Positions 2,080 through 44,783 of a DNA stretch of 64,000 nucleotides are shown here, piece after piece (within the stretch, counting starts at the first letter, position 1; each line of letters opens with the position of its first letter). A program made the position numbers and the translations under genes. Location of the stretch: contig JAISFD010000022.1 in NCBI GenBank assembly GCA_031263815.1, forward strand, positions 5,320 through 69,319. The letters are read 5' to 3'. Origin of the DNA: Coxiellaceae bacterium (GTDB lineage: Bacteria; Pseudomonadota; Gammaproteobacteria; UBA9339). The notes beneath the pieces were generated by a model. That model saw only the letters and a program-made list of their open reading frames with translations. It was not told where the DNA came from and searched no databases.

Positions 2080-3423
2080 TTAACCAGATTGACTAGCAAG
2101 TTGTTTATAGCCAGAGGCTTGCCATAGAGGAATTAGGAGTAATATGGATAGTACTGCACAGATACCTACACTAATAAAGAAACCGTACCAACCGAAATGA
2201 TCTATTACTAATCCAACAGGATAACCAGATATAGCTGCTCCAATGTAGCCGAATAAACCAACAAATCCTGTAGCGGTACCAGCAGCTTCTCTGTGAGACA
2301 ATTCAGCAGCAGCTATCCCAATTAACATTTGGGGACCGAAGATAAAAAACCCTATACCAAACATTACTAGACTATGTAAGAGGAAATGTTTACCTGGGAT
2401 AAACCAGAAACATAGTAAAAGAAGTACTACCCCTAAACTAAATAAAACATTGGTTTGTCCTCTTAGACTACTAAAAAATTTATCTGAACACCAACCCGCC
2501 ACTAAACTTCCTATGAACCCACCTATTTCAAAGAATGACATGCAGCTATTAGCGCGCATTAAAGTGTATCCTTGTTCAGTTAAAAATGGGGAACCCCAAT
2601 CATTTACGGCCATACGCACTGCATAAACAAATACATATGAGAATGCTAATAACCAAATATAATAATTTCTAAATACATAATTAAAAAATATTTTAACAAT
2701 AGGTTGGGTAGTTGTTTTTTTTGATTGTTTTTCTACATGATTATTTCTATATACTTCGATGGGTGGTAGTCCTTGTGATTCTGGAACGTCTCGTAAACGG
2801 TTAAAGATGAAAAATGAGATGATAATAGCAATTACTCCTGGAACAAGCATGGCTGCTCTCCAGTTGGCAAAAAACAAAACGCTTGCTGCTGCGATAATTG
2901 GAATTAGAGCTCCACCTAGATTATGAGCAGTATTCCATGCCCCCCACCATCTGCCACGTTCAGATTGAGAGTACCAATGAGTTAAGAGACGAGCACAAGG
3001 GGGCCAACCCCATCCTTGAAAAAAGCCGTTTATGAGCCAGAATAATATTAAGCATAATAAAGAAGAAGAAAAGCCAAAGAAGATATTTGCTATACCAGTA
3101 GCCATTAAACCAAACGCCATGAAATAACGTGGATTGGATTTGTCTGATAGCATACCGCTAATAAATTTACTTATACCGTAAGTGATATAAAAAACACTTC
3201 CTAAAATACCAATTTGCTCTTTAGTGAAGTGAAGATCTTGAATCATTTGAGGAATAACAAAGGTGAAACTTTTACGTGTTAGATAAAAAATGGCGTATCC
3301 AACATACATGGCGTACATAGTTCGGATACGCCAATAACGATAGGTTTGATCAATTACGATAGGGTCAGTTATTTTCTGAACCGAAGTTTTATTGAATAAA
3401 TTGCTGTAACTAAAACTTATCAT
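2080..3423 (-). CDS. MFS organophosphate:phosphate antiporter (GlpT/UhpT/UhpC family)
   Basis: 447-aa polytopic protein. The N-terminal region YWRIRTMYAMYVGYAIFYLTRKSF and SDKSNPRYFMAFGL are typical of the OPA family. Confidence 0.8.
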   Translation of the reverse strand: MISFSYSNLFNKTSVQKITDPIVIDQTYRYWRIRTMYAMYVGYAIFYLTRKSFTFVIPQMIQDLHFTKEQIGILGSVFYITYGISKFISGMLSDKSNPRYFMAFGLMATGIANIFFGFSSSLLCLILFWLINGFFQGWGWPPCARLLTHWYSQSERGRWWGAWNTAHNLGGALIPIIAAASVLFFANWRAAMLVPGVIAIIISFFIFNRLRDVPESQGLPPIEVYRNNHVEKQSKKTTTQPIVKIFFNYVFRNYYIWLLAFSYVFVYAVRMAVNDWGSPFLTEQGYTLMRANSCMSFFEIGGFIGSLVAGWCSDKFFSSLRGQTNVLFSLGVVLLLLCFWFIPGKHFLLHSLVMFGIGFFIFGPQMLIGIAAAELSHREAAGTATGFVGLFGYIGAAISGYPVGLVIDHFGWYGFFISVGICAVLSILLLIPLWQASGYKQLASQSG

Positions 3424-28428: not shown

Positions 28429-29547
28429 ATGAAAATAGTAACACGTTATCTAATCCGCGAGGTTTATATCGCTATGTTAGCAGCGGTAGTAGTGTTACTG
28501 TTTATTTTCTTAAGTAATGTTTTAGTACGTTATATGCATTTTGCGGCTAGTGGAGCATTATCTAGCCAAGCAGTAAAAATAATAATGTTACTACAAATCC
28601 CTATTTTATCTGCCATACTTTTACCTGCTAGCCTGTTTTTGGGTATACTACTTGCATATGGTCGTTTATATGCAGATAGTGAAATGATTATATTCACTGT
28701 ATGTGGTATGGATCCTAAACGCTTATTAACTACTAACCTGATTTTGGCTTTGATCATAATACTTTTAGTTGCTACGTTGTCTTTATGGATTAATCCTAAA
28801 GTTTATAAATATTATGATCACATAAACAGTGGAGCTACTTCATTAGTACTAGACATGGTTAAACCTGGTAGCTTTAACAATGAGATTGCTCAAGGTAAGT
28901 GGGTATTTTATGTTGAAACGATATCTCATGATAAGAAATATTTTTATAACGTCTTTGCAGTGGAGCAAACAAATAATTCTAGTCAGATTGGAGAACAGAA
29001 TTTATGTGTATTGACCGCCAAAAGTGCTTATCAGCAACAAGGTGATTCTAATGGTAATGAACCTTACATAATTCTTAAAGATGGATATCGTTATGTGGGC
29101 ACTCCTGGACAAAAAGACTATGAAATAACTAAGTATGATGAATATGGAATTAAAATATCGCCAGAAACTCAGGAATGGCATGGAGACGAAAGTAGTATTC
29201 CAACTATGAAATTATTACAGGCTAAACACAATAATTTAGCTGCAGCAGAACTACAGTGGCGAATTTCCTTACCGCTATCTACTTTTATATTAACCTTGAT
29301 TGGTATTCCGTTGAGTAAAGTTAAATCCAAACGAGGTCGTTATGCTCAATTGATTCCAGCAATACTTTTATATGTTGTATATGCTAACTTTTTATTTCTA
29401 GCAAGAGCTTGGATCAAAAGAGGAGTTTTATCACCAATGTTAGGTGTTTGGTGGGTACATGGTTTAATGCTGGCTTTAGCAATCTTTTTAATTGGTAGGC
29501 AACTCGGATGGTGGCGAATTTTTGGGGCAAAAATTCAAGATGTATAA
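28429..29547 (+). CDS. lptF: LPS export ABC permease LptF
   Basis: YjgP/YjgQ-type permease architecture; paired with lptG. Confidence 0.85.
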   Translation: MKIVTRYLIREVYIAMLAAVVVLLFIFLSNVLVRYMHFAASGALSSQAVKIIMLLQIPILSAILLPASLFLGILLAYGRLYADSEMIIFTVCGMDPKRLLTTNLILALIIILLVATLSLWINPKVYKYYDHINSGATSLVLDMVKPGSFNNEIAQGKWVFYVETISHDKKYFYNVFAVEQTNNSSQIGEQNLCVLTAKSAYQQQGDSNGNEPYIILKDGYRYVGTPGQKDYEITKYDEYGIKISPETQEWHGDESSIPTMKLLQAKHNNLAAAELQWRISLPLSTFILTLIGIPLSKVKSKRGRYAQLIPAILLYVVYANFLFLARAWIKRGVLSPMLGVWWVHGLMLALAIFLIGRQLGWWRIFGAKIQDV

Positions 29548-29583
29548 ATATCATCTTCAATATCAACAAACACGCATTACCGT

Positions 29584-30645
29584 ATGAAAATATTAGAAAA
29601 ATATATTTTTAAATTCATTGTTAGCCATGTATTACTAGTAATTTTATTTTTAATTGGTTTGCATATGTTTGTCGAGTTTTTACACGAATTTCCTAATATT
29701 GGGGTTAAAGATTATGGTTTGTATAAGATTTTAATTTGTGTAATTCTAATGTTACCTAATGATCTTTATCAATTTTTTCCTATAGCCTGTTTATTAGGTT
29801 CAGTAATTGCCCTCGGTTTGTTAGCATCACATAGTGAGTTGATTATCATGCGAGTTTCTGGGATGTCATTAATTAATATCACCTCTGCTGTTCTTAAAGC
29901 GGCCATATTTCTATTATTGATAATGATATTAATTGGCGAGATAATATCTCCAATAGCTCAGCGTAGATCGGTTCAGATAAAAACCGCTGCTTTAACTGGT
30001 GGACAGACTTCACTGACCATGCAAGGTATATGGTTGCGTGATAATCAAGATATTATAAATATTAATTCAGCATCTAGTGGTGGATTACATGGTGTTACTC
30101 GTTACCGATTTACTGATGATAAAAAACTACAGTTTGTGAGTTGTGCAGAAACTGGGGTTTATAAAAATAAAAGCTGGATTCTGAATAACGTAAAATATAC
30201 TGAATTTCAAGATGACAAAATAAATAATTTCAATATTCCAGAAGAGCAGGTAGCATTGAAAATTAATCCGAATTTAATTGGCATCGAATATATATACACT
30301 AATCAAGAAAATCTTCTTGATTTATACAATTATATAGAATATCGTTCTCAAAGCGGCTTAGATGTTGCCGGCCATAAAGTAGCTTTTTGGCAAAGAATTT
30401 TCGCGCCTTTTGCCACATTGATTATGATTCTACTTGCTATTCCATTTATATTTGGTTTATTACGTGGATCAACAATGGGTCTAAGGATGTTAGTAGGCAT
30501 GGTATTCGGTTTTGGGTTTTATATTTTTCATCAATTTGTAGGACCAATGAGCGTTGTTTATCATGTTCCTCCAGTATTAGCCGCTTTTTTGCCTGCCTTG
30601 GTTTTTGCTACTATTGGGACAATTCTTTTATTTAAAGTGCGCTAG
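29584..30645 (+). CDS. lptG: LPS export ABC permease LptG
   Basis: YjgP/YjgQ-type permease directly after lptF. Confidence 0.85.
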   Translation: MKILEKYIFKFIVSHVLLVILFLIGLHMFVEFLHEFPNIGVKDYGLYKILICVILMLPNDLYQFFPIACLLGSVIALGLLASHSELIIMRVSGMSLINITSAVLKAAIFLLLIMILIGEIISPIAQRRSVQIKTAALTGGQTSLTMQGIWLRDNQDIININSASSGGLHGVTRYRFTDDKKLQFVSCAETGVYKNKSWILNNVKYTEFQDDKINNFNIPEEQVALKINPNLIGIEYIYTNQENLLDLYNYIEYRSQSGLDVAGHKVAFWQRIFAPFATLIMILLAIPFIFGLLRGSTMGLRMLVGMVFGFGFYIFHQFVGPMSVVYHVPPVLAAFLPALVFATIGTILLFKVR

Positions 30646-35911: not shown

Positions 35912-36943
35912 ATGCAAACACTACTTCCTACTAGAATAGTTGGTCCAATTAAAATTATCAGTAATGATTTTTCTGCTGATTCTAGAGTTCCACTTGCTAC
36001 TTTTGAGAAGCCTCTATGGTTTTCAGTAGAGCGTGGAGCTCGAGTAACAAGAAAATCTGGGGGTATAAGGACAGTGTTAGTGCAAGATTGTATGACACGA
36101 TCAATATTAGTCGAGGCTGAAAATGCTATTTATGCATTTGAAGTAGTCAATAGCTTAAAAGGGTTTCGATCTGAATTAGAAAAAATCGCTGTTAAAAGTA
36201 GTAGATTTACACAACTTAAAGATTGGCAAACTCAAATTGTAGCTAACCTGATTTATATTCGTTTTACTTTTACTACTGGTGGAGCTGCAGGTCATAATAT
36301 GTCAACAAAAGCAGCTGAGATGTTGCAACAGTGGCTATTAGATAAATTTCCTAAGTTGAAATATATCTCAATTTCTGGAAATTATTGTGTCGATAAAAAA
36401 AATTCAGCAGTAAATGGTATTTTGGGTAGAGGTAAATTTGTAATTGCTGAAGCTTTGATTCCTCGTGAACTTTGTCAGAAAGAATTGAAAGCTAGTCCAG
36501 AGAAAATCGTTGATTTAAATATTAAAAAGAATCTTCTTGGCTCAATTATTTCTGGTGGAGTAAGAACTGCTAATGCCCATTTTGCTAACATGCTTTTAGC
36601 ATTTTATTTAGCTATGGGCCAAGATGCAGCGAATATTGTTGAAGGATCCCAAGGATTTACTTATGCAGAAGTACGCAAAGATGATTTATATTTTTCAGTA
36701 ACTTTGCCCAATATCATTATTGGTGCAATAGGTAGCAATAAAGATCTAGATTGGGTAAAGGAAAATTTAAGAATATTGGGAGTTTTAAAGCCGAATGACT
36801 ATAATTTTAATGCGCGTGCCCTTGCGTTGATAGCGGCAGCAGTAGTTTTATGTGGAGAGATTTCTTTAATGGCTGCACAAACAAATCCTGGGGAACTTAT
36901 GCGAAGTCATTTAGCAATTGAAAGAAAAAACGTAATTAAGTAA
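35912..36943 (+). CDS. HMG-CoA reductase, class-I-like, short soluble form
   Basis: Blocks matching the class I catalytic core: PLATFEKPLWFS (Glu), SGNYCVDKKNSAVNGILGRGK (DKK Lys), GQDAANIVEGS (Asp), GELMRSHL (His), ANAHFAN. It lacks the N-domain and the membrane anchor. TTGGAAGHNM replaces the usual TGDAMGMNM. Confidence 0.75.
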   Translation: MQTLLPTRIVGPIKIISNDFSADSRVPLATFEKPLWFSVERGARVTRKSGGIRTVLVQDCMTRSILVEAENAIYAFEVVNSLKGFRSELEKIAVKSSRFTQLKDWQTQIVANLIYIRFTFTTGGAAGHNMSTKAAEMLQQWLLDKFPKLKYISISGNYCVDKKNSAVNGILGRGKFVIAEALIPRELCQKELKASPEKIVDLNIKKNLLGSIISGGVRTANAHFANMLLAFYLAMGQDAANIVEGSQGFTYAEVRKDDLYFSVTLPNIIIGAIGSNKDLDWVKENLRILGVLKPNDYNFNARALALIAAAVVLCGEISLMAAQTNPGELMRSHLAIERKNVIK

Positions 36944-36955
36944 TGGGGGATGAAT

Positions 36956-37519
36956 ATGACAAAAATTTTACTTGTGGCCGCATCTACACGGCAAGATTCA
37001 TCTAACAAAAAACTTATTAATCTTATCGCAAAATTAAGTACCCAACAAAAAATTGATGTTGAAGTTCTGGATTTTGCTAACTATAGGGCTCCACTTTATG
37101 ATGGAGATCTTGAAGATAAATTTGGTATACCTGAAGTGGTTCGAGCTTTTGTTGCAAAACTTCAAGATGCTTACGGTTTAATTTTATCTTCACCAGAATA
37201 TAATTTCTCTACTCCAGGAACTTTAAAAAGTCTTATCGATTGGATTTCACGTGTAAGACCTATGCCATGGGTAAGATATCCTATTATGCTATGTTCTGCC
37301 TCACCATCTTTGGTTGGTGGTAATAGAGGACTATTGCATACAGCAGTAATCTTGCAATGTTGCTGTAATGCCGATATTTTTCCTCCAATGTTTTCTTTGG
37401 CAAATAGCTATGAGGCGTTTACTAATGATGGTTCGTTAAAAGATAAGAATCTTGAACAAAAGTTAAGCAAAAACATTGTTGGGTTCGTAAATTTCGTAAA
37501 AAAACTAGCTCGCACATAA
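36956..37519 (+). CDS. NAD(P)H-dependent FMN reductase family protein
   Basis: Flavodoxin-like fold start MTKILLVAASTRQDSSNKKL and the SPEYNFSTPGTLKSLIDW block. Confidence 0.7.
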   Translation: MTKILLVAASTRQDSSNKKLINLIAKLSTQQKIDVEVLDFANYRAPLYDGDLEDKFGIPEVVRAFVAKLQDAYGLILSSPEYNFSTPGTLKSLIDWISRVRPMPWVRYPIMLCSASPSLVGGNRGLLHTAVILQCCCNADIFPPMFSLANSYEAFTNDGSLKDKNLEQKLSKNIVGFVNFVKKLART

Positions 37520-37529
37520 GTATTTCGTG

Positions 37530-37865
37530 CTATAGTGCAGATAAAGGATGTCCACCGAGTAAATGTAGATGTAAATGATACACTACTTGTCCACCATCAC
37601 GATTACAATTAATCAAAACTCGATAACCATTGGCATCAATTTTGAATTCTCTTGCTAATTTTTGCGTCACTAAAATCATATTACCAATTAGATCTCTATC
37701 TTCTGGTATTAAATCATTCATGGTAGCTATATGTTTATGTGGAATAATTAATTTATGTTGTGGTGCTCTGGGGTTAATATCATCAAAAGCGATTATTTTA
37801 TCATCTTGATAAATAATATTCGCTGGTATTATACCACTAGCAATTTTGCAGAAAATACAATCCAT
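37530..37865 (-). CDS. hinT: HIT-family nucleotide-binding protein (HinT-like)
   Basis: CIFCKI N-terminus and histidine triad HLHLHLLGG. Confidence 0.9.
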   Translation of the reverse strand: MDCIFCKIASGIIPANIIYQDDKIIAFDDINPRAPQHKLIIPHKHIATMNDLIPEDRDLIGNMILVTQKLAREFKIDANGYRVLINCNRDGGQVVYHLHLHLLGGHPLSAL

Positions 37866-37961
37866 ACTATCTAAATTGATTATTTAATATTAATACCTAC
37901 AATATGTTATATTGTAATTATATTATTCAATTATGTATACTAAAAAGTTGAAGATCATTCT

Positions 37962-37980
37962 TCATGGTTAATAACCATGA
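37962..37980. promoter_or_regulatory. Perfect 9-1-9 palindrome in the intergenic region upstream of the GltD-like/PFOR operon (candidate operator)
   Basis: TCATGGTTA-A-TAACCATGA at 37962-37980, ~160 nt upstream of ATG 38140. There is no other support. Confidence 0.3.
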
Positions 37981-38139
37981 CCATTAAAAGAGGAATTCTG
38001 GAAAAACTTTATTTCTGTAAACAGAGTGTTAAAAAATTGTATCCAAACGCGGTCAAGTTAGTAGCAATTAGTAGACTTCCTATTCAGATGCTTTTATAAT
38101 TTAATTTGTAGACGGATTATTCGATAGTTTATTGCAAAA

Positions 38140-39735
38140 ATGGAGTTTTTAGGCATGATTAATAAATCGCGAAAAGTTGCTGTTTGTGTCAAAAAAACAC
38201 CCCCCTGTAATAATATTTGCCCTGCAGGAGAAGATATTCAACATTGGCTAAATTTAGCTAAAGAACAAAAATATCATGAAGCATGGCAAGTTATTTTGCA
38301 AAGTAATCCTTTCCCAGCTATTCATGGTAGGGTTTGTTATCATTATTGTGAAACTAGGTGTAATCGAATACAACACGATTCAACTGTAGGAATTCATTGT
38401 ATTGAACGGTTTCTGGGAGATATGGCTCTAAGAGAGAAATGGGCCGCCCCAGCATTAAATACTAATACTAAAAAAGAGATTCTAATTGTAGGAGCTGGTC
38501 CAGCTGGTTTAACTGCAGCTTATTATTTACGTTTGTTTGGATACAATGTTACGATTTACGAGTCTCTACCTCAAGCCGGTGGTATGATGTTAATAGGTAT
38601 CCCAGCTTACCGTCTTCCACGTGAGATTCTATTTGGAGAGATTAATCGTGTTTTGAATACTGGAATAAAAATTGAATATAACCACAAAGTTCAGGATGTA
38701 ATTAAAGAAAAAGACGATCATGGTTTTGATGCGGTATTTTTAGCTATTGGTGCCCATTTGGGAAAAGATATCGCTATTCAAATAGAGGATCCATGCATAG
38801 TTATGGATGCTATTGACTATCTACGCGGAATTGCTCTAGGAAGATCAACTGCTCTTGGATCACGTTTAGTAGTCTATGGTGGTGGTAATACCGCAATAGA
38901 TGTGGCTCGAAGTGCTAAACGTTTGGGTGTATCTGACGTTAATATTGTTTACCATCGTACCCGTGAGAGAATGTCGGCTTTCAATCGTGAAATAGAAGCT
39001 GCTCTGGCTGAAGGCATTAAATTTACTTTTTTACGCAGTATTATAGCTCTCAACCACAATACTTTAACTTTAAGTATTAACGAGATTGATAACAAAGGGC
39101 GGCCCAAAAATACTGGGAAGATTGAAACACTAGAAATTGATGCTTTGATTTTTGCTTTAGGTCAAATTCCAGATTCTGAATTTTTGCGTAAAATTCCTGA
39201 AGTTGGATTACAGCCGGCTGGAGTAATAACTATAGATGATTTATTTATAACTGGATATCGTGGTATTTTTGCTGGTGGTGATATGATTCCATTTGATCGA
39301 AGTATTACTGCAGCTGTAGGTCACGGTAGACGTGCGGCTTATTGTATTGATTCATATTTGGGTCATACTCATACTTCTTTTGGTGAATTGCCTTTTAGTA
39401 AAGAGTTGGCGTCTTTCGACAAATTACATATTAGTGATGAAAAGTCGCAAAAAACTATGGAAAAAATGCTGCAAGCGGGGACACGAGTCAAATCTTTTTC
39501 CGAAGTTATTCCGAGTTGTACTCAAAATGAAGTTTTATATGAATCAAAGCGTTGTTTTTCATGTGGCAATTGTTTTGGTTGTGGTAAGTGTTATGCAGTT
39601 TGTCCTGTAACAGCGATAACACATTCAAAGCTAGATGGTAAAGTTACTGAAATTAATCCGGCAAAATGTATTGATTGTAGTCAATGTTTTAAAATTTGTC
39701 CATGTGGTGCTATCAATATGATAGATAGAAAATAA
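38140..39735 (+). CDS. GltD-like NAD(P)H-dependent Fe-S flavoprotein oxidoreductase with a C-terminal 2x[4Fe-4S] ferredoxin domain
   Basis: N-terminal Cys cluster (CNNICPAG...CYHYCETRCNR). Two dinucleotide folds (IVGAGPAGLTAAYYL; VVYGGGNTAIDVARSA). C-terminal CFSCGNCFGCGKCYAVCP and CIDCSQCFKICPCGA. Confidence 0.8.
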   Translation: MEFLGMINKSRKVAVCVKKTPPCNNICPAGEDIQHWLNLAKEQKYHEAWQVILQSNPFPAIHGRVCYHYCETRCNRIQHDSTVGIHCIERFLGDMALREKWAAPALNTNTKKEILIVGAGPAGLTAAYYLRLFGYNVTIYESLPQAGGMMLIGIPAYRLPREILFGEINRVLNTGIKIEYNHKVQDVIKEKDDHGFDAVFLAIGAHLGKDIAIQIEDPCIVMDAIDYLRGIALGRSTALGSRLVVYGGGNTAIDVARSAKRLGVSDVNIVYHRTRERMSAFNREIEAALAEGIKFTFLRSIIALNHNTLTLSINEIDNKGRPKNTGKIETLEIDALIFALGQIPDSEFLRKIPEVGLQPAGVITIDDLFITGYRGIFAGGDMIPFDRSITAAVGHGRRAAYCIDSYLGHTHTSFGELPFSKELASFDKLHISDEKSQKTMEKMLQAGTRVKSFSEVIPSCTQNEVLYESKRCFSCGNCFGCGKCYAVCPVTAITHSKLDGKVTEINPAKCIDCSQCFKICPCGAINMIDRK

Positions 39736-39754
39736 AAGTTATTATGAGGTAGTT

Positions 39755-42700
39755 ATGAATGCAGAAATGAAGATAATGGATGGTAATGAAGCGGTAGCAT
39801 ATATTGCTTACCGTGTTACAGAAATTAATGCAATTTATCCGATCACTCCTTCTACTCCTATGGGGGAATTTGCTGATCAATGGGCATCTGATGGGGTAAA
39901 GAATATTTGGAATACTGTCCCACAAGTAGTTGAAATGCAGAGTGAGGGTGGTGCCGCTGGTGTATTACATGGAGCTTTACAAGGTGGTGCTTTAGCAACG
40001 ACTTATACAGCTTCTCAGGGACTTCTTTTGATGATTCCTAATATGTATAAAATTGCTGGTGAACTAACCTCAACTGTGATTCATGTGGCATCTCGTTCTT
40101 TAGCATGTCAAGGGTTATCTATTTTTGGTGATCATAGTGATGTGATGGGAATTCGTGATACTGGTTTTGTAATGTTAGCTTCAGGTAGCGTCCAGGAGGC
40201 TCATGATTTAGCACTAATTGCTCATGCATCGACATTAGAAGCAAGGATACCATTTATTCATTTTTTTGAAGGGTTTCGAGTTAGCCATGAGATTAATAAA
40301 ATAGATCTTATAACTGATGAACAAATCCGCACTATGATCGATGAAGATCTGGTATTAGCCCATCGACGTCGTGCTTTAAGCCCTGAATGTCCATGTATCC
40401 GTGGCACATCGCAAAATCCAGATGTATATTTTCAAGGGCGAGAAACTGTTAACCCCTTTTATTTGAAGGTACCAAGTATTGTTGAAAAATATATGGATAG
40501 ATTAGCTAATCTCACTGGACGAAAATATTCCTTAATGAACTATTATGGAGATAAAGCAGCAGAAAAAGTTATTATTATTATGGGATCTGCTTCCAAGGTG
40601 GTTATCGAAACAGTTGCCGAACTTAATGCGCAAGGAGAAAAAGTTGGAGTAATACAGGTTTATTTATATCGTCCATTCCCTGTAGATCGGTTTATGCAAG
40701 TCTTACCTACGAGTGTTAAGGTGATAGCAGTGTTAGATCGTACTAAAGAACCTGGATCTCTTGGTGAGCCTTTATATCAAGATGTATTAACAGCATTGGC
40801 TGAAATAATAAATCAAGGTAAAGTAATTTTTAATAGCGGCTATCCCAAAGTTGTTGGCGGACGCTATGGTTTATCATCTAAAGAGTTCACCCCAGCGATG
40901 GCTAAAGGAGTATTTGATAACCTCAAACAAGATTTTCCCAAAAATCATTTCACTATTGGGATCAAAGATGATGTAACTAATAGCAATTTAGACTATGACG
41001 TAAATTTCTCTATTAAAGATTCTCAACATAAGTGTTTTATTTTTTATGGTTTAGGTTCAGATGGCACTATAGGGGCTAATAAAAACACCATAAAAATTAT
41101 TGGCCAAGAAACTCCATTATATGTGCAAGGTTATTTTGTTTATGATTCAAAAAAATCTGGATCCAAAACAGTATCACATCTACGGTTTTCATCCAAACCA
41201 ATCCAAGCTCCGTACCTAATTACAACTGCTGATTTTATTGCATGTCATCAGTTTAACTTTATCGAATCTGAGACTATCTTAGACAATGCAATTACTGGCG
41301 CTACATTTTTATTAAATTCTCCATTTGGCCCCAATGAAATTTGGGATAATTTACCCAGAGTTGTAGTGGAGAAAATTCTTGCTAAAAAGATGAAATTTTA
41401 TGTTATTGATGCCTATAAAGTTGCAGCGCAGACCGGGATGGGCGTAAGAATTAATACCATTATGCAAACCTGTTTCTTTGCCATTTCGGGTATTTTACCT
41501 CGTGAAGAAGCTATTACTAAGATTAAGGATGCTATTGTTAAAACCTATAAGAAGAAAGGGGAAGAAGTAATTAAGAAAAATTTTGCAGCGGTTGATCAAA
41601 CTTTAGATAATCTTTTTGCAGTAAAACTAATAGATGAAGTATCAATTAAAGCTCATGATTTAGCTCCAACAGTGAGTAGTAAGGCTCCAGAATTTGTTCA
41701 AAAAGTTACCGTGGTAATGATGAAAGATCAGGGAGATAATTTGCCGGTTAGTGCTTTACCGATCGATGGTACTTATCCAAGTGGTACCACTCAGTGGGAA
41801 AAACGTAATGTCTCAGCCGAAGTTGCGGAGTGGAATCCTGATTTATGTATTCAATGTGGACAATGCAGTTTGATATGCCCTCATGGAGTAATCCGTGCTA
41901 AACATTTTACTCAGGATAGTCTGCAAAATGCTCCAGCCGATTTTAAGACTGCCAAATGCCGAGCTAAAGAATTTGCTAATGATCAATTCAGATTACAAGT
42001 TTATCTTGAAGATTGTACTGGATGTGGTTTGTGTAATGAAGTATGTCCAGCCGTTAGTAAAGAGAATCATGAAATTAAAGCTATTATGATTACACCTAAA
42101 GCTTCTAGATTGACTATAGAACGTAGAAATATCGAATTTTTTGCAAGTTTAATTGATGAAGATAAACGAGAAATTGATAACTCTAATGTAAGGGGAGTGC
42201 AATATTTACCTCCTTACTTTGAATTCTCTGGTGCCTGCTCTGGGTGCGGTGAAACGCCTTATATTAAATTAGTTAGTCAATTATTTGGTGACAGAATGTT
42301 AGTGGCTAATGCAACTGGTTGTTCTTCGATTTATGGTGGTAATTTACCTACAACGCCGTGGACTTTTGATAATTCTGGACGTGGTCCTGCTTGGTCAAAT
42401 TCATTATTTGAAGATAATGCTGAATTTGGTCTTGGTTTTAGATTAGCCACGGATAAACAACAAGTACTTGCTTTAGAATTACTCCAAGAATTTTCTGAAC
42501 AAATAGATAACGATCTAGTAGCCGCAGTCATTCAGGGAACGAAAGAAGACGATGAAAAAAATATTTTTATTCAACGTCAACGTCTTATAGAACTAAAAGA
42601 GAAACTAACTAAAATGCGGGATCCACGGATTAAACATTTATTAATGTTATTAGAATATCTAGTTAAGCGTAGTATCTGGATAATAGGTGGTGATGGTTGG

Positions 42701-43318
42701 GCCTATGATATCGGTTATGGTGGTGTAGATCATGTATTAGCTAGTAATTATGATGTGAATATTTTGGTATTAGATACAGAAGTATATTCTAATACAGGTG
42801 GTCAAGCTTCCAAAGCTACTCCCCGGGGGGCAGCTGCTAAATTTGTCAATTCTGGTAAATCCTTAGCTCGTAAAGATTTAGGGATGATAGCTATGACATA
42901 CAATAATGTTTATGTAGCTCAAGTAGCACTAGGAGCAAATCCTGCTCAAACTATACGAGCAATTATTGAGGCCGAGAGTTATCATGGACCTTCATTAATT
43001 ATCGCTTATAGCCATTGTATAGCTCATGGATATGATTTACGCCATGGAATTATGCAACAAAAACTAGCTATTAATAGTGGTTTTTGGCCTCTTTATCGCT
43101 ATCATCCTGATCGCCTTAAACAAGGTCTAAATCCTTTGCAATTAGACTCTAAAGAACCGAGTATTCCGGTACGAGATTTTGCATACAATGAATCCCGTTT
43201 TAAGGTTCTAGCATCTCAACATCCAGAGCATGCTGAAGAATTACTAAAGCAATTGCAAGAGGATGTAACTAAGCGCTGGCAAATGTACGTTAATATGTCT
43301 CTAGCCAAGTACAATTAA
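39755..43318 (+). CDS. nifJ: Pyruvate:ferredoxin (flavodoxin) oxidoreductase, single-chain NifJ/YdbK type
   Basis: 1187 aa. Two ferredoxin motifs (CIQCGQCSLICPHG, CTGCGLCNEVCPA) and a TPP-binding block IIGGDGWAYDIGYGG...DTEVYSNTGGQ. It starts 19 nt after the GltD-like stop. Confidence 0.95.
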   Translation: MNAEMKIMDGNEAVAYIAYRVTEINAIYPITPSTPMGEFADQWASDGVKNIWNTVPQVVEMQSEGGAAGVLHGALQGGALATTYTASQGLLLMIPNMYKIAGELTSTVIHVASRSLACQGLSIFGDHSDVMGIRDTGFVMLASGSVQEAHDLALIAHASTLEARIPFIHFFEGFRVSHEINKIDLITDEQIRTMIDEDLVLAHRRRALSPECPCIRGTSQNPDVYFQGRETVNPFYLKVPSIVEKYMDRLANLTGRKYSLMNYYGDKAAEKVIIIMGSASKVVIETVAELNAQGEKVGVIQVYLYRPFPVDRFMQVLPTSVKVIAVLDRTKEPGSLGEPLYQDVLTALAEIINQGKVIFNSGYPKVVGGRYGLSSKEFTPAMAKGVFDNLKQDFPKNHFTIGIKDDVTNSNLDYDVNFSIKDSQHKCFIFYGLGSDGTIGANKNTIKIIGQETPLYVQGYFVYDSKKSGSKTVSHLRFSSKPIQAPYLITTADFIACHQFNFIESETILDNAITGATFLLNSPFGPNEIWDNLPRVVVEKILAKKMKFYVIDAYKVAAQTGMGVRINTIMQTCFFAISGILPREEAITKIKDAIVKTYKKKGEEVIKKNFAAVDQTLDNLFAVKLIDEVSIKAHDLAPTVSSKAPEFVQKVTVVMMKDQGDNLPVSALPIDGTYPSGTTQWEKRNVSAEVAEWNPDLCIQCGQCSLICPHGVIRAKHFTQDSLQNAPADFKTAKCRAKEFANDQFRLQVYLEDCTGCGLCNEVCPAVSKENHEIKAIMITPKASRLTIERRNIEFFASLIDEDKREIDNSNVRGVQYLPPYFEFSGACSGCGETPYIKLVSQLFGDRMLVANATGCSSIYGGNLPTTPWTFDNSGRGPAWSNSLFEDNAEFGLGFRLATDKQQVLALELLQEFSEQIDNDLVAAVIQGTKEDDEKNIFIQRQRLIELKEKLTKMRDPRIKHLLMLLEYLVKRSIWIIGGDGWAYDIGYGGVDHVLASNYDVNILVLDTEVYSNTGGQASKATPRGAAAKFVNSGKSLARKDLGMIAMTYNNVYVAQVALGANPAQTIRAIIEAESYHGPSLIIAYSHCIAHGYDLRHGIMQQKLAINSGFWPLYRYHPDRLKQGLNPLQLDSKEPSIPVRDFAYNESRFKVLASQHPEHAEELLKQLQEDVTKRWQMYVNMSLAKYN

Positions 43319-43352
43319 TGTAGTTAGTTTGCTAAATTACAAAGATGCTAAA

Positions 43353-44783
43353 TTATTTGAGTTTGGTAGCTAGACGATTTAGGGCAAAAATGGAATAAAA
43401 CCACCCGAGAGAGATAATTATAAAGATCGTAAAAATTATAGGCGATAGATCGAGGAGAGTTAGTGCTGGAAATAATGCAAATAACCCTTGTTGCAGGAAA
43501 GCTCCACTACCTTTGCCAAATCTCATACCTACAATTTCAGCAGCTGCTTTACCTTTAGTTTTCAGATCATCATCTAAAGGTATATAAATCATTTCTTTAG
43601 TGGGATCAAATATCGCGTGTTTTAAAGAACGGGAACAAACATTGTAAACGGCTCCTAAATACACTGCTACTATTATTATTGATGATTGCAAAGTAAGTAG
43701 CCATGTGATCTCTCTAAATAGTATTGATAAGAAGAATATTCCACCTGTAAGCAAAATAATTATTGGAGTAATTAAAGCAGCGATTTTCCACTTAAGAAGA
43801 CGTAAGACATGAGCCCCAATAAATGTACTCGTGATACTAACTATTGAGATACATATATCTATTTTACTAATAAAGTGTTGAATATAATTCGCATTACTTG
43901 TAAAAAATATCTCAATAGATTTTTTCCAAACTCCTTCGACTATATTGAGTGAGATATTGTAACAAAGTAGTAATGATGTAATTAAAAGCATGACTTTAGA
44001 AGAACTAATATATTTTAAGCTTTCTTTAAAACTAATCTTGTTCTTTGATTTAAAATGACCTCTTTTTAAGTTAAAAGTATTAACACCAATTATCTTTTCT
44101 AAAAAAAATAGACAAATAGTTATTATTATTCCAGCTATGACGATTGAAATCGTAATATTATTCAATGTTGATTGCCAATCAGCGGCATATTTTGCTGCAT
44201 AATTAGTAGATAAAATTCCAGCGATCATTTTACCTAATCCTGCAAAGGTACCAAAAAGAGGATAGAACCTTTTGGATTCCTCAATAGAGGTTATATGATT
44301 TGCAGTTTGCCAAAAAGAGATTGAAAACATAATGACAACCCAGCCTTCAGAAAATACGTAAAACAAAGTGTAATGCCAATTACTTACTATTCTGAACAGA
44401 TATTTAAATGATGAAAGTCGTGAGACTATAGGATTGCTTATATCGATAATTAATGTCTCTCTATGCGGGTAAAGTACTAAAGCAAATAATATAAAATAAG
44501 AAATAAAAAACCAGGTAGTAATATAAAATAACTGTGCCCTTGATAATTTATCTGATAGTTTAATATACAAAAACATGAAAATTAGAGAAATCGGTAATAC
44601 CGCCCATATTTTAATTGCGCTTATAGATTCAGTACCCAAGTGAGAAATAACTAGAACATCTTTTGATATGTGCAGTATGCTATGAATATAAGCTATGGCA
44701 AAAATAAGCACTGCGGTACACAAAAACTTTGTCAATTCAACCCGTTGAATTGGGATCAACTTCTTTATTGTATGCTTATTCAT
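43353..44783 (-). CDS. tlc: ATP/ADP translocase-type nucleotide transporter (NTT/Tlc family), paralog 2
   Basis: 476 aa and colinear with the 23967..25424 product. By eye, half or more of the positions are shared, including HITSIEESKRFYPLFG and EMIYIPLDDDLKTKGKAAAEIVGMRFGKGSGAF. Confidence 0.9.
   Translation of the reverse strand: MNKHTIKKLIPIQRVELTKFLCTAVLIFAIAYIHSILHISKDVLVISHLGTESISAIKIWAVLPISLIFMFLYIKLSDKLSRAQLFYITTWFFISYFILFALVLYPHRETLIIDISNPIVSRLSSFKYLFRIVSNWHYTLFYVFSEGWVVIMFSISFWQTANHITSIEESKRFYPLFGTFAGLGKMIAGILSTNYAAKYAADWQSTLNNITISIVIAGIIITICLFFLEKIIGVNTFNLKRGHFKSKNKISFKESLKYISSSKVMLLITSLLLCYNISLNIVEGVWKKSIEIFFTSNANYIQHFISKIDICISIVSITSTFIGAHVLRLLKWKIAALITPIIILLTGGIFFLSILFREITWLLTLQSSIIIVAVYLGAVYNVCSRSLKHAIFDPTKEMIYIPLDDDLKTKGKAAAEIVGMRFGKGSGAFLQQGLFALFPALTLLDLSPIIFTIFIIISLGWFYSIFALNRLATKLK

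Follow-up and report, generated by a model that had tools for sequence, protein, structure and literature searches.

Pyruvate:ferredoxin oxidoreductase (PFOR), which oxidizes pyruvate and coenzyme A (CoA) to acetyl-CoA and CO2, is commonly depicted as passing its electrons to a pool of free ferredoxin, and its single-chain form has its own chain of clusters and normally uses free carriers. In the stretch of DNA considered here, 64,000 nucleotides (nt) of contig JAISFD010000022.1 from a Coxiellaceae bacterium (hereafter, the window), a gene for a single-chain PFOR lies directly behind the gene of an iron-sulfur (Fe-S) flavoprotein resembling GltD, and this arrangement raises the question of which acceptor receives the electrons of that PFOR. 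We consider it fairly probable, judging from sequence, that the two genes form one operon and encode a two-component pyruvate:NADP+ oxidoreductase. The features of the locus are listed below in window coordinates; residues of the flavoprotein are numbered throughout from the start, at 38140, of its open reading frame (ORF).

38072..38100, + strand: promoter-like site TAGACT-17 nt-TATAAT, ~55 nt 5' of the likely start codon of the flavoprotein gene
38140-39735, + strand: flavoprotein ORF, 531 aa from the first ATG
38155..39735, + strand: Fe-S flavoprotein gene, family NF009410/PRK12771, 526 aa from the likely start
38191..38439, + strand: main part of the GltD/NfnB-type Fe-S domain, residues 18-100, matching Fer4_20 at profile positions 26-112 only
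38476..39321, + strand: FAD and NAD(P)H Rossmann core, residues 113-394, Pyr_redox_2, 102 bits
39475..39567, + strand: displaced first Fer4_20 segment, residues 446-476, RVKSFSEV...ESKRCFSCG, carrying C472 and C475
39568..39732, + strand: C-terminal 2x[4Fe-4S] ferredoxin-type domain, Fer4_7, with C478, C481, C484, C488, C510, C513, C516 and C520
39736..39754, + strand: intergenic spacer, 19 nt, with a GAGG ribosome-binding site at 39746-39749 and no terminator (direct read and scan)
39755..43318, + strand: single-chain PFOR gene, nifJ/ydbK type, intact, 1187 aa, with TIGR02176 and full-length structure matches

Both ORFs and the spacer, as described in the original prediction (a 531-aa ORF 19 nt ahead of a 1187-aa PFOR), were confirmed by direct reading, and all the motifs quoted there were found (GAGPAGL, GGGNTAIDVA, CIQCGQCSLICP, CTGCGLCNEVCP and GGDGWAYDIGYGG). 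The domain order also held in profile searches, with Fer4_20, Pyr_redox_2 and Fer4_7 in the flavoprotein and the full PFOR series (POR_N, PFOR_II, POR, EKR, two Fer4 and TPP_enzyme_C) in the second protein. The latter scores 1751.8 bits against TIGR02176 (cut-off 911; residues 5-1182), carries the GGDGWAYDIGYGG motif and two CxxCxxCxxxCP motifs, and can be aligned over its full length to the PFOR structures from Moorella (6cin_A) and Desulfovibrio (1b0p_A), which identifies the second gene, at the level of sequence, as that of an intact single-chain pyruvate:ferredoxin/flavodoxin oxidoreductase.

The flavoprotein is a member of the NCBIfam family NF009410 (PRK12771), against which it scores 607.7 bits over residues 9-529 (cut-off 516), and relatives such as L079 and L022 (labels of loci in the survey described below) reach 765-767 bits; the family is named only 'NAD(P)-binding protein'. 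It does not group with GltD or dihydropyrimidine dehydrogenase (DPD); such a grouping had been named as one that would speak against a PFOR partner. The two Rossmann folds and the C-terminal 2x[4Fe-4S] domain that had been recognized correspond to the Pfam matches Pyr_redox_2 (113-394) and Fer4_7 (477-524), behind Fer4_20 (18-100). The Rossmann core carries GAGPAGL, GGGNTAIDVA and, after the second Rossmann strand, the basic stretch VYHRTRE, and both dinucleotide glycine motifs, for FAD and for NAD(P)H, are thus present in the window protein. We noticed that all putative cluster ligands are invariant in an alignment of 118 sequences (A2): C23, C27, C66, C70, E71 and C74 in the N-terminal part, where E71 sits at the NfnB-type 'CE' Glu-ligand position, and likewise C472, C475 and the eight cysteines of the C-terminal dicluster. 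These 15 cysteines and E71 give 16 ligands, which suffices for four [4Fe-4S] clusters, and the protein is predicted to carry FAD, a NADP-type Rossmann site and these four clusters.

The N-terminal Cys cluster described earlier is indeed there, but it is incomplete alone, as ligands C472 and C475 sit behind the flavin core. Residues 435-491 align, in HMMER searches, to the extreme N-terminus (2-59) of NfnB (4ylf_B, 5jca_L), and placing residues 435-476 ahead of 20-110 improved the Fer4_20 match, from 70.5 bits over profile positions 24-112 to 95.3 bits over positions 1-112. Since the joined segments lift the score and cover the whole profile, the GltD-type Fe-S domain is circularly permuted, with its first segment moved behind the flavin core, and it is because of this displacement that the Fer4_20 match begins at profile position 26 only. 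The segment with C472 and C475 is directly continuous with the CxxCxxCxxxCP motifs of the dicluster at the C-terminus. An AlphaFold2 run with 118 sequences gave a compact model (predicted local distance difference test, pLDDT, 93.6; predicted template modelling score, pTM, 0.92) and was used in place of a run with 10 sequences, which was set aside (pLDDT 64, C-terminus <50, poor Fe-S regions). The best whole-chain fold matches of the model are StnC (8oh5_C) and NfnABC (9bov_A, 9n5v_A), with template modelling (TM) scores of 0.80-0.82, and NfnB, GltD and DPD match it in the core only (TM ~0.67). Among the sequence matches in the PDB, the best are the large subunits of NfnABC (9n5u, 9bov) and StnC (8oh5) at E ~1e-82 to 1e-87, followed by NfnB at E ~1e-60, GltD at E ~1e-43 and DPD at E ~1e-27. 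StnC of StnABC (8oh5) and the NfnABC large subunit (9bov, 9n5u) share with the window protein the displaced 'R..F.EV...RC..CG' segment and, behind it, additional clusters; they differ in their size (950-1180 aa), in their formate-dehydrogenase-like extensions and in working, within bifurcating transhydrogenases, with NuoE/F-like partners, and no such partner is present in the window.

As for the nucleotide, NADP(H) is more likely than NAD(H), because VYHRTRE, in which Y271 and R273 do not vary among the 118 aligned sequences, resembles and aligns with the 'YRRT...' of the NADPH-binding NfnB, StnC and NfnABC.

To place the pair among its relatives, a pattern scan of species-representative genomes was carried out, in which at least 582 relatives of the flavoprotein were confirmed among the candidate stretches; the best 80 of these at least 582 relatives with flanks, and two loci from exact look-ups, make up a survey set of 82 loci. 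A full-length single-chain PFOR lies directly downstream, on the same strand, in 74 of the 82 loci, 55-78% identical to the window PFOR and with projected gene gaps of -26 to +203 nt. In five further loci the flavoprotein stands after porC-porA-porB instead of before PFOR, and in three the partner was undetected, which contig ends or short contigs explain in L003 and L069 and which leaves L022 as a genuine orphan. The pairing is therefore far beyond chance, and the gene-neighborhood survey that had been proposed as a check bears out the association of PFOR with GltD-like proteins over about nine phyla: Pseudomonadota (Gamma-, Alpha-, Beta- and Zetaproteobacteria), Bacteroidota, Gemmatimonadota, Acidobacteriota, Actinomycetota (class Thermoleophilia), Myxococcota, Vulcanimicrobiota/Eremiobacterota, Planctomycetota and others. 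Many of the hosts are aerobes or microaerophiles (such as Methylococcaceae, Competibacteraceae, Chitinophagales and Gemmatimonadota), and orthologues are present in the cultured strains Photobacterium alginatilyticum P03D4, Oricola indica JL-62 and Mangrovitalea sediminis M11-4. Pairwise distances of flavoprotein and PFOR are correlated with r = 0.87, a value reached in 0 of 999 Mantel permutations; this co-divergence fits inheritance and transfer of the two genes as a unit, and shared species history may contribute too. The window belongs to a clade of five long-branch members, together with L082 (the closest relative, its flavoprotein being 77% identical), L081, L001 and L002. In their source annotations, relatives are called 'formate dehydrogenase (NADP+) beta subunit' or 'glutamate synthase beta subunit-like'.

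The five loci with porC-porA-porB (L039, L048, L072, L074 and L079) form a clade of their own, and are informative on the place of the flavoprotein in an enzyme, here the four-subunit pyruvate oxidoreductase (POR). Stop and start codons overlap along porC-porA-porB-flavoprotein (e.g., L079:4980-9539); L048 is Magnetovibrio blakemorei and L079 belongs to Thalassospiraceae. There is no separate porD in these five operons, and the dicluster motifs of the operon occur only in the C-terminus of the flavoprotein, i.e., fused to it in the position of PorD (in L074, an additional dicluster motif pair is found in a separate ORF ~1.6 kb downstream). The C-terminus of the L079 flavoprotein scores 65 bits against TIGR02179 PorD_KorD (cut-off 60). 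Because porD is missing and this C-terminus scores above the PorD_KorD cut-off, the flavoprotein of the POR variant is a delta-subunit fusion, an integral subunit of a 2-oxoacid:ferredoxin oxidoreductase (OFOR) in which it replaces PorD, and these operons predict a NADP-linked four-subunit POR. The C-terminal domain is PorD-like in most of the family: PorD is also the best match outside the family for the C-termini of the mainstream PFOR-linked members L004, L044 and L076 (38-46 bits), as it is in L079 (38-56 bits overall), and the signal has faded in the window clade (L002, 32 bits). The flavoproteins of L048 and L079 are like that of the window in their NF009410 membership (767 bits), permuted Fe-S domain and C-terminal dicluster. 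Unlike in the window, this C-terminus is the only PorD of the enzyme and is above the PorD_KorD cut-off, whereas the window protein has as partner a single-chain PFOR with its own PorD-equivalent domain, and a weak PorD signal.

Signals around the two genes were also inspected. The flavoprotein probably starts at the second ATG (38155; 526 aa), since a GGAG is located 9 nt 5' of this codon, the first ATG is not conserved (ACG, TCA or ATA at that spot in the relatives L082, L001 and L081) and the gene call in public collections is of 526 aa; a GGAG/AGAG box and the second ATG are kept in the upstream regions of L082, L001 and L081. A Shine-Dalgarno GAGG stands 5 nt ahead of the PFOR ATG, and no terminator-like site was found in a scan of 37400-44000. 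The predicted site TAGACT-17-TATAAT is the top-scoring one of the promoter scan, with 10/12 matches, and the block TTAGTAGAC...TA(T/C)AAT is conserved ahead of the orthologous gene in L082 and L001. The 19-nt spacer with its Shine-Dalgarno sequence, the lack of a terminator and this conserved upstream promoter-like site are the grounds on which we assign both genes, with the reservation expressed at the outset, to one operon.

Further upstream of the operon lies a perfect palindrome, TCATGGTTAATAACCATGA (window 37962-37980). It was ruled out as a conserved operator, being unconserved in L082, L001 and L081, which have other repeats there. At the corresponding place, L082 (L082:9551-10001) has a different inverted repeat of ~23 nt, ACTCAAAAACCTCGG...CCGAGGTTTTTGAGT; palindrome and repeats differ, and only the promoter-like block nearer the gene is common to the upstream regions of the window and L082.

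In the mechanism that we propose, PFOR would oxidize pyruvate and CoA at its thiamine pyrophosphate (TPP) to acetyl-CoA and CO2, and the two electrons would leave it singly via its three [4Fe-4S] clusters. In a complex of the two proteins, they would enter the flavoprotein at the C-terminal ferredoxin-type dicluster, presumably derived from PorD, cross the two GltD-type clusters and gather on FAD, which would reduce NADP+ (NAD+ being less likely) by hydride transfer; free ferredoxin would be unnecessary for this transfer. The original prediction had made the flavoprotein the dedicated NAD(P)-linked partner of PFOR, and this idea agrees with the family of its own, the conserved pairing and the replacement of PorD. 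The cofactor sites, family membership, conserved synteny and fusion at the PorD position are shown by sequence, while the complex with single-chain PFOR, the net reaction, its direction, the direct transfer and the preference for NADP are what we infer.

The pyruvate:NADP+ oxidoreductase (PNO) of Euglena, Cryptosporidium and Blastocystis, built on a PFOR core, converts pyruvate, CoA and NADP+ to acetyl-CoA, CO2 and NADPH. The net reaction and the PFOR core would be the same in the window, but PNO is one polypeptide with a cytochrome-P450-reductase-type FMN/FAD module, whereas here the NADPH module is a GltD-type FAD protein of its own, with four [4Fe-4S] clusters, and the two solutions are unrelated. 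A eukaryotic-type PNO was in fact rejected for the window, since its PFOR stops where such enzymes normally do and carries no fused flavodoxin/FNR-like (cytochrome P450 reductase) Pfam domain. Another GltD-like flavoprotein with a C-terminal ferredoxin domain, DsrL, serves one dedicated Fe-S enzyme; as NAD(P)H:DsrAB oxidoreductase of sulfur metabolism it differs in its partner, a sulfite reductase, and the likeness is one of description only. A further related system is the 2-oxoglutarate oxidoreductase (KGOR) of Azoarcus evansii, which in work by Ebenau-Jehle, Boll and Fuchs of 2003 was reportedly purified and seen to reduce NADP+ directly via an extra FAD-containing subunit. It differs in its substrate, 2-oxoglutarate, and in its KorAB-type core; likened to the window pair by classification, it may be taken as a biochemical precedent for the pairing of a GltD-family protein with a 2-oxoacid oxidoreductase. 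The extra flavoprotein subunit of the A. evansii 2-oxoglutarate:NADP+ oxidoreductase is placed among the GltD homologues in a clade list that also includes DsrL (PMC10134865).

A third gene has to be considered in many of the surveyed loci. A gene of ~330 aa encoding a dihydroorotate dehydrogenase (DHOD)-like protein (PF01180) follows PFOR in ~35 of the 55 loci with enough downstream sequence (e.g., L004:13313-14317 and L018:5666-6667). The L004 protein, the one translated, has zero cysteines, hence no catalytic Cys, and DHOD-like protein and flavoprotein together present the full DPD-like domain set. By tblastn, no DHOD-like sequence was found in the whole 64-kb window, nor was such a gene found in the fetched DNA of its five-member clade, and, because the sequence is missing from these 64 kb, the window represents a minimal two-gene form. 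The three-gene layout is that of the nifJ1 operon of Propionibacterium, where nifJ1 is flanked by, and co-transcribed and co-regulated with, a glutamate-synthase-small-chain-like and a dihydroorotate-dehydrogenase-like gene, where nifJ1 knockout cripples growth, and where a bifurcating complex was postulated (McCubbin et al., 2020; PMC7650540). As in the window, a GltD/NfnB-like flavoprotein with an extra ferredoxin-type domain stands there beside a single-chain PFOR; unlike that triad, the window and its clade have two genes and no DHOD-like partner. The pair is thus not special to the window genome: this operon type is known, widespread and catalogued under an uninformative name, and was discussed once in the literature (PMC7650540).

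Several more familiar identities were tried for the flavoprotein and rejected. A true GltD would be expected above the cut-offs of TIGR01317 and TIGR01318 (447.7 and 482.95 bits), against which the window protein scores 149.8 and 202.4 bits, and there is no gltB within the 64-kb window. NfnB, of the bifurcating NfnAB, is recognized by nfnA directly upstream, by a conserved Arg (333 in Pfu NfnI-L) and by a N-terminal extension with RCxxC (PMC12221290), and the window protein has none of the three: the upstream gene is hinT, on the opposite strand, F281 takes the place of Pfu Arg333 (the sequences inspected in alignment A1 have F, H or Q there), and the RCxxC segment is found at 471-475, behind the core, with a N-terminus that is not extended. 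Compared with NfnB, the window protein thus lacks nfnA, has Arg333 replaced by Phe, a permuted Fe-S segment and an added dicluster domain. For dihydropyrimidine dehydrogenase (PreT/PreA or fused DPD) the match has only E = 1e-27, with no DHOD-like partner in the 64-kb window. The beta subunit of NADP-dependent formate dehydrogenase (KEGG K15022), a label given to relatives by the Joint Genome Institute (JGI), was discarded as well, given that no gene for a molybdopterin or tungsten formate dehydrogenase alpha subunit adjoins the flavoprotein gene in the window or in any of the 82 loci.

A number of observations weigh against a two-component pyruvate:NADP+ oxidoreductase. Enzymology of a PFOR and GltD-like pair was not found in the literature, and the PFOR-linked members of the family are without a published assay. 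No RNA run containing this stretch was found, the matching runs being DNA runs of a termite-gut study only. The closest solved structures, StnC and NfnABC, belong to electron-bifurcating enzymes, and the DHOD-like third gene of most informative loci makes the system there more than a plain NADP reductase of two parts. NADP is preferred to NAD on account of the basic motif VYHRTRE. For the C-terminus of the window protein, no PorD model is among the families listed at E <= 1e-6, generic ferredoxin models scoring best, and, because this C-terminus gives no detectable PorD signal, the PorD argument rests on the relatives. Moreover, a single-chain PFOR already has a PorD-equivalent domain, and the flavoprotein would dock a second PorD-like module onto it.

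The same net chemistry could arise without a complex if PFOR reduced a ferredoxin or flavodoxin encoded elsewhere and the flavoprotein were a general ferredoxin:NADP+ oxidoreductase of the Cac_0764 kind, with a ferredoxin-like domain added and simply co-expressed with PFOR. Stand-alone GltD-like proteins of Fer4_20 plus Pyr_redox_2 composition have been proven to act in vitro as soluble oxidoreductases of this type with PFOR-reduced ferredoxin, the activity being established for the Cac_0764 type (PMC12221290), and both NfnB and Cac_0764-type enzymes share with the window protein Fer4_20 and Pyr_redox_2, FAD, two [4Fe-4S] clusters (one with a Glu-ligand position) and a NADPH-type motif. That the C-terminus of the window protein resembles a generic ferredoxin, and that the complete cluster chain of single-chain PFORs is known to work normally with free carriers, would suit such a soluble relay. 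We nevertheless regard it as unlikely, since no ORF with a free ferredoxin motif was found in the 64-kb window or the fetched flanks, the flavoprotein of the sister clade is built into the enzyme in the place of PorD, and strict PFOR adjacency over about nine phyla together with the correlation of distances exceeds what would be expected of a housekeeping ferredoxin:NADP+ oxidoreductase. The FAD could also bifurcate or confurcate, as in NfnB, StnC and NfnABC, so that the oxidation of pyruvate and NAD(P)H would be linked to a third redox partner, an acceptor or a donor (a quinone, or the substrate of the DHOD-like protein), with conservation of energy. PFOR and flavoprotein, mostly with the DHOD-like FMN protein, would then constitute a new kind of energy-coupling 2-oxoacid oxidoreductase that does not dissipate ~180 mV, a proposal we find quite doubtful, and the two-gene form of the symbiont would, with no better odds, be a stripped-down derivative or have its partner encoded elsewhere. 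Besides the published hypothesis (PMC7650540), the best structural matches, which are bifurcating StnC and NfnABC subunits with the same permuted arrangement, the invariant E71 at the NfnB-type 'CE' ligand position and the DHOD-like gene of ~35 loci point in this direction; the lack of that gene in the window and in the fetched DNA of its clade, the lack of all three NfnB features of PMC12221290 and the fact that the 526-aa protein shows neither a second electron path nor another nucleotide site argue against it, and we hold bifurcation to be improbable.

Flow in the opposite direction is very improbable. In such a scheme NADPH would, via the flavoprotein, keep the PFOR clusters reduced, so as to protect the enzyme or to reactivate it when oxidation has damaged it, or would power the formation of pyruvate from acetyl-CoA and CO2. 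PFOR is, as is well established, reversible in principle, and it needs protection in aerobic or microaerophilic organisms, to which many of the hosts belong, but at ~-320 mV NADPH is unable to support pyruvate synthesis (~-500 mV) unless energy is coupled in, the window organism comes from an anoxic gut and evidence specific to a repair role was not found. Finally, the two genes might adjoin by chance, the flavoprotein being the small subunit of a glutamate synthase, dihydropyrimidine dehydrogenase or NADP-dependent formate dehydrogenase encoded elsewhere, as the names formate dehydrogenase (NADP+) beta or glutamate synthase beta-like in the annotations of relatives would suggest. We give this almost no credence, since GltD scores are of 150-202 bits against cut-offs of ~450-480, the DPD match is at E = 1e-27, and PFOR in 74/82 loci plus POR in five more leave no room for another regular partner.

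If the two genes do encode a pyruvate:NADP+ oxidoreductase, bacteria would have their own equivalent of the protist PNO, assembled from unrelated components, and the operon suggests that many bacteria, including aerobes and facultative anaerobes for which low-potential ferredoxin is of no obvious use, wire PFOR or a four-subunit POR directly to NADP+ via a dedicated Fe-S flavoprotein. The family, with at least 582 members, would need renaming from 'glutamate synthase beta-like', 'NADP formate dehydrogenase beta' and 'NAD(P)-binding protein', and metabolic models would change for carriers of the operon such as wastewater Competibacter, methanotrophs, Zetaproteobacteria and propionibacteria. The window adds one minimal two-gene member, and it is the whole family, not this copy, that makes a worthwhile biochemical target.

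The host is a reduced, host-dependent, Coxiellales-like bacterium of the termite gut: one DNA run from a termite-gut metagenome covers 99% of the stretch, and the nearest homologues are in Coxiellaceae metagenome-assembled genomes (MAGs). An oxygen-sensitive PFOR had been pointed out as metabolically notable in a bacterium that otherwise looks like an intracellular nucleotide parasite; it is unremarkable here because the source, the termite gut, is an anoxic habitat. No pyruvate dehydrogenase genes were found in the 64-kb window, and in the contig sequence fetched beyond the window ends only housekeeping genes were found. The pair is preceded by pyrG, kdsA, eno, ftsB, a short HMG-CoA reductase gene, a FMN-reductase-like gene and hinT, and followed by a nucleotide transporter (TLC/NTT), thiamine diphosphokinase, surE and nlpD. 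The order flavoprotein-PFOR-TLC recurs in the Coxiellaceae MAG L081, and the order HMG-CoA reductase-hinT-flavoprotein in L082; the flavoprotein-PFOR-TLC block seems to move as a unit within the lineage. HMG-CoA reductase, an enzyme of the mevalonate pathway, is encoded at window 35912-36943, 1.2 kb upstream of the pair. We hypothesize that the pair turns imported glycolytic carbon into acetyl-CoA and NADPH, the two inputs of HMG-CoA reductase, products that would suit this adjoining mevalonate-pathway enzyme; the two-component enzyme would then explain how this bacterium gets from imported sugar phosphate to acetyl-CoA and NADPH for the mevalonate pathway. Since HMG-CoA reductase is encoded near the PFOR operon and dxr is missing from its usual place on the contig beyond the window, the mevalonate pathway may have replaced the methylerythritol phosphate (MEP) pathway, as in Coxiella.

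Some further observations were made on the surroundings. On the contig beyond the 3' end of the window (L084:3541-5622), frr is directly followed by uppS and cdsA, and dxr is absent from where it usually stands. At window 2080-3423, on the minus strand, there is a UhpC/PgtP-type sugar-phosphate/phosphoglycerate transporter (NF008661, 590 bits, above cut-off), which fits uptake of glycolytic intermediates from the host, a possible supply for enolase and PFOR. Between the genes of HMG-CoA reductase and hinT, at window 36950-37519 (+ strand), lies the NADPH-dependent FMN-reductase-like gene (189 aa, weak SsuE/MsuE matches), which is probably outside the PFOR system, since it is missing at the same position in L082. 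In L081, a tRNA-like sequence is found just upstream of the flavoprotein gene (L081:1-330), and TLC transporter and HIT genes come after PFOR. In L082, lptF/lptG are present as three fragments (L082:484-2700) and enolase as two (L082:6470-7762); this genome may be decaying, and the fragments may represent either pseudogenes or mistakes of assembly. The window has enolase as one intact ORF and, at 28429-30645, ORFs of normal lptF/lptG size.

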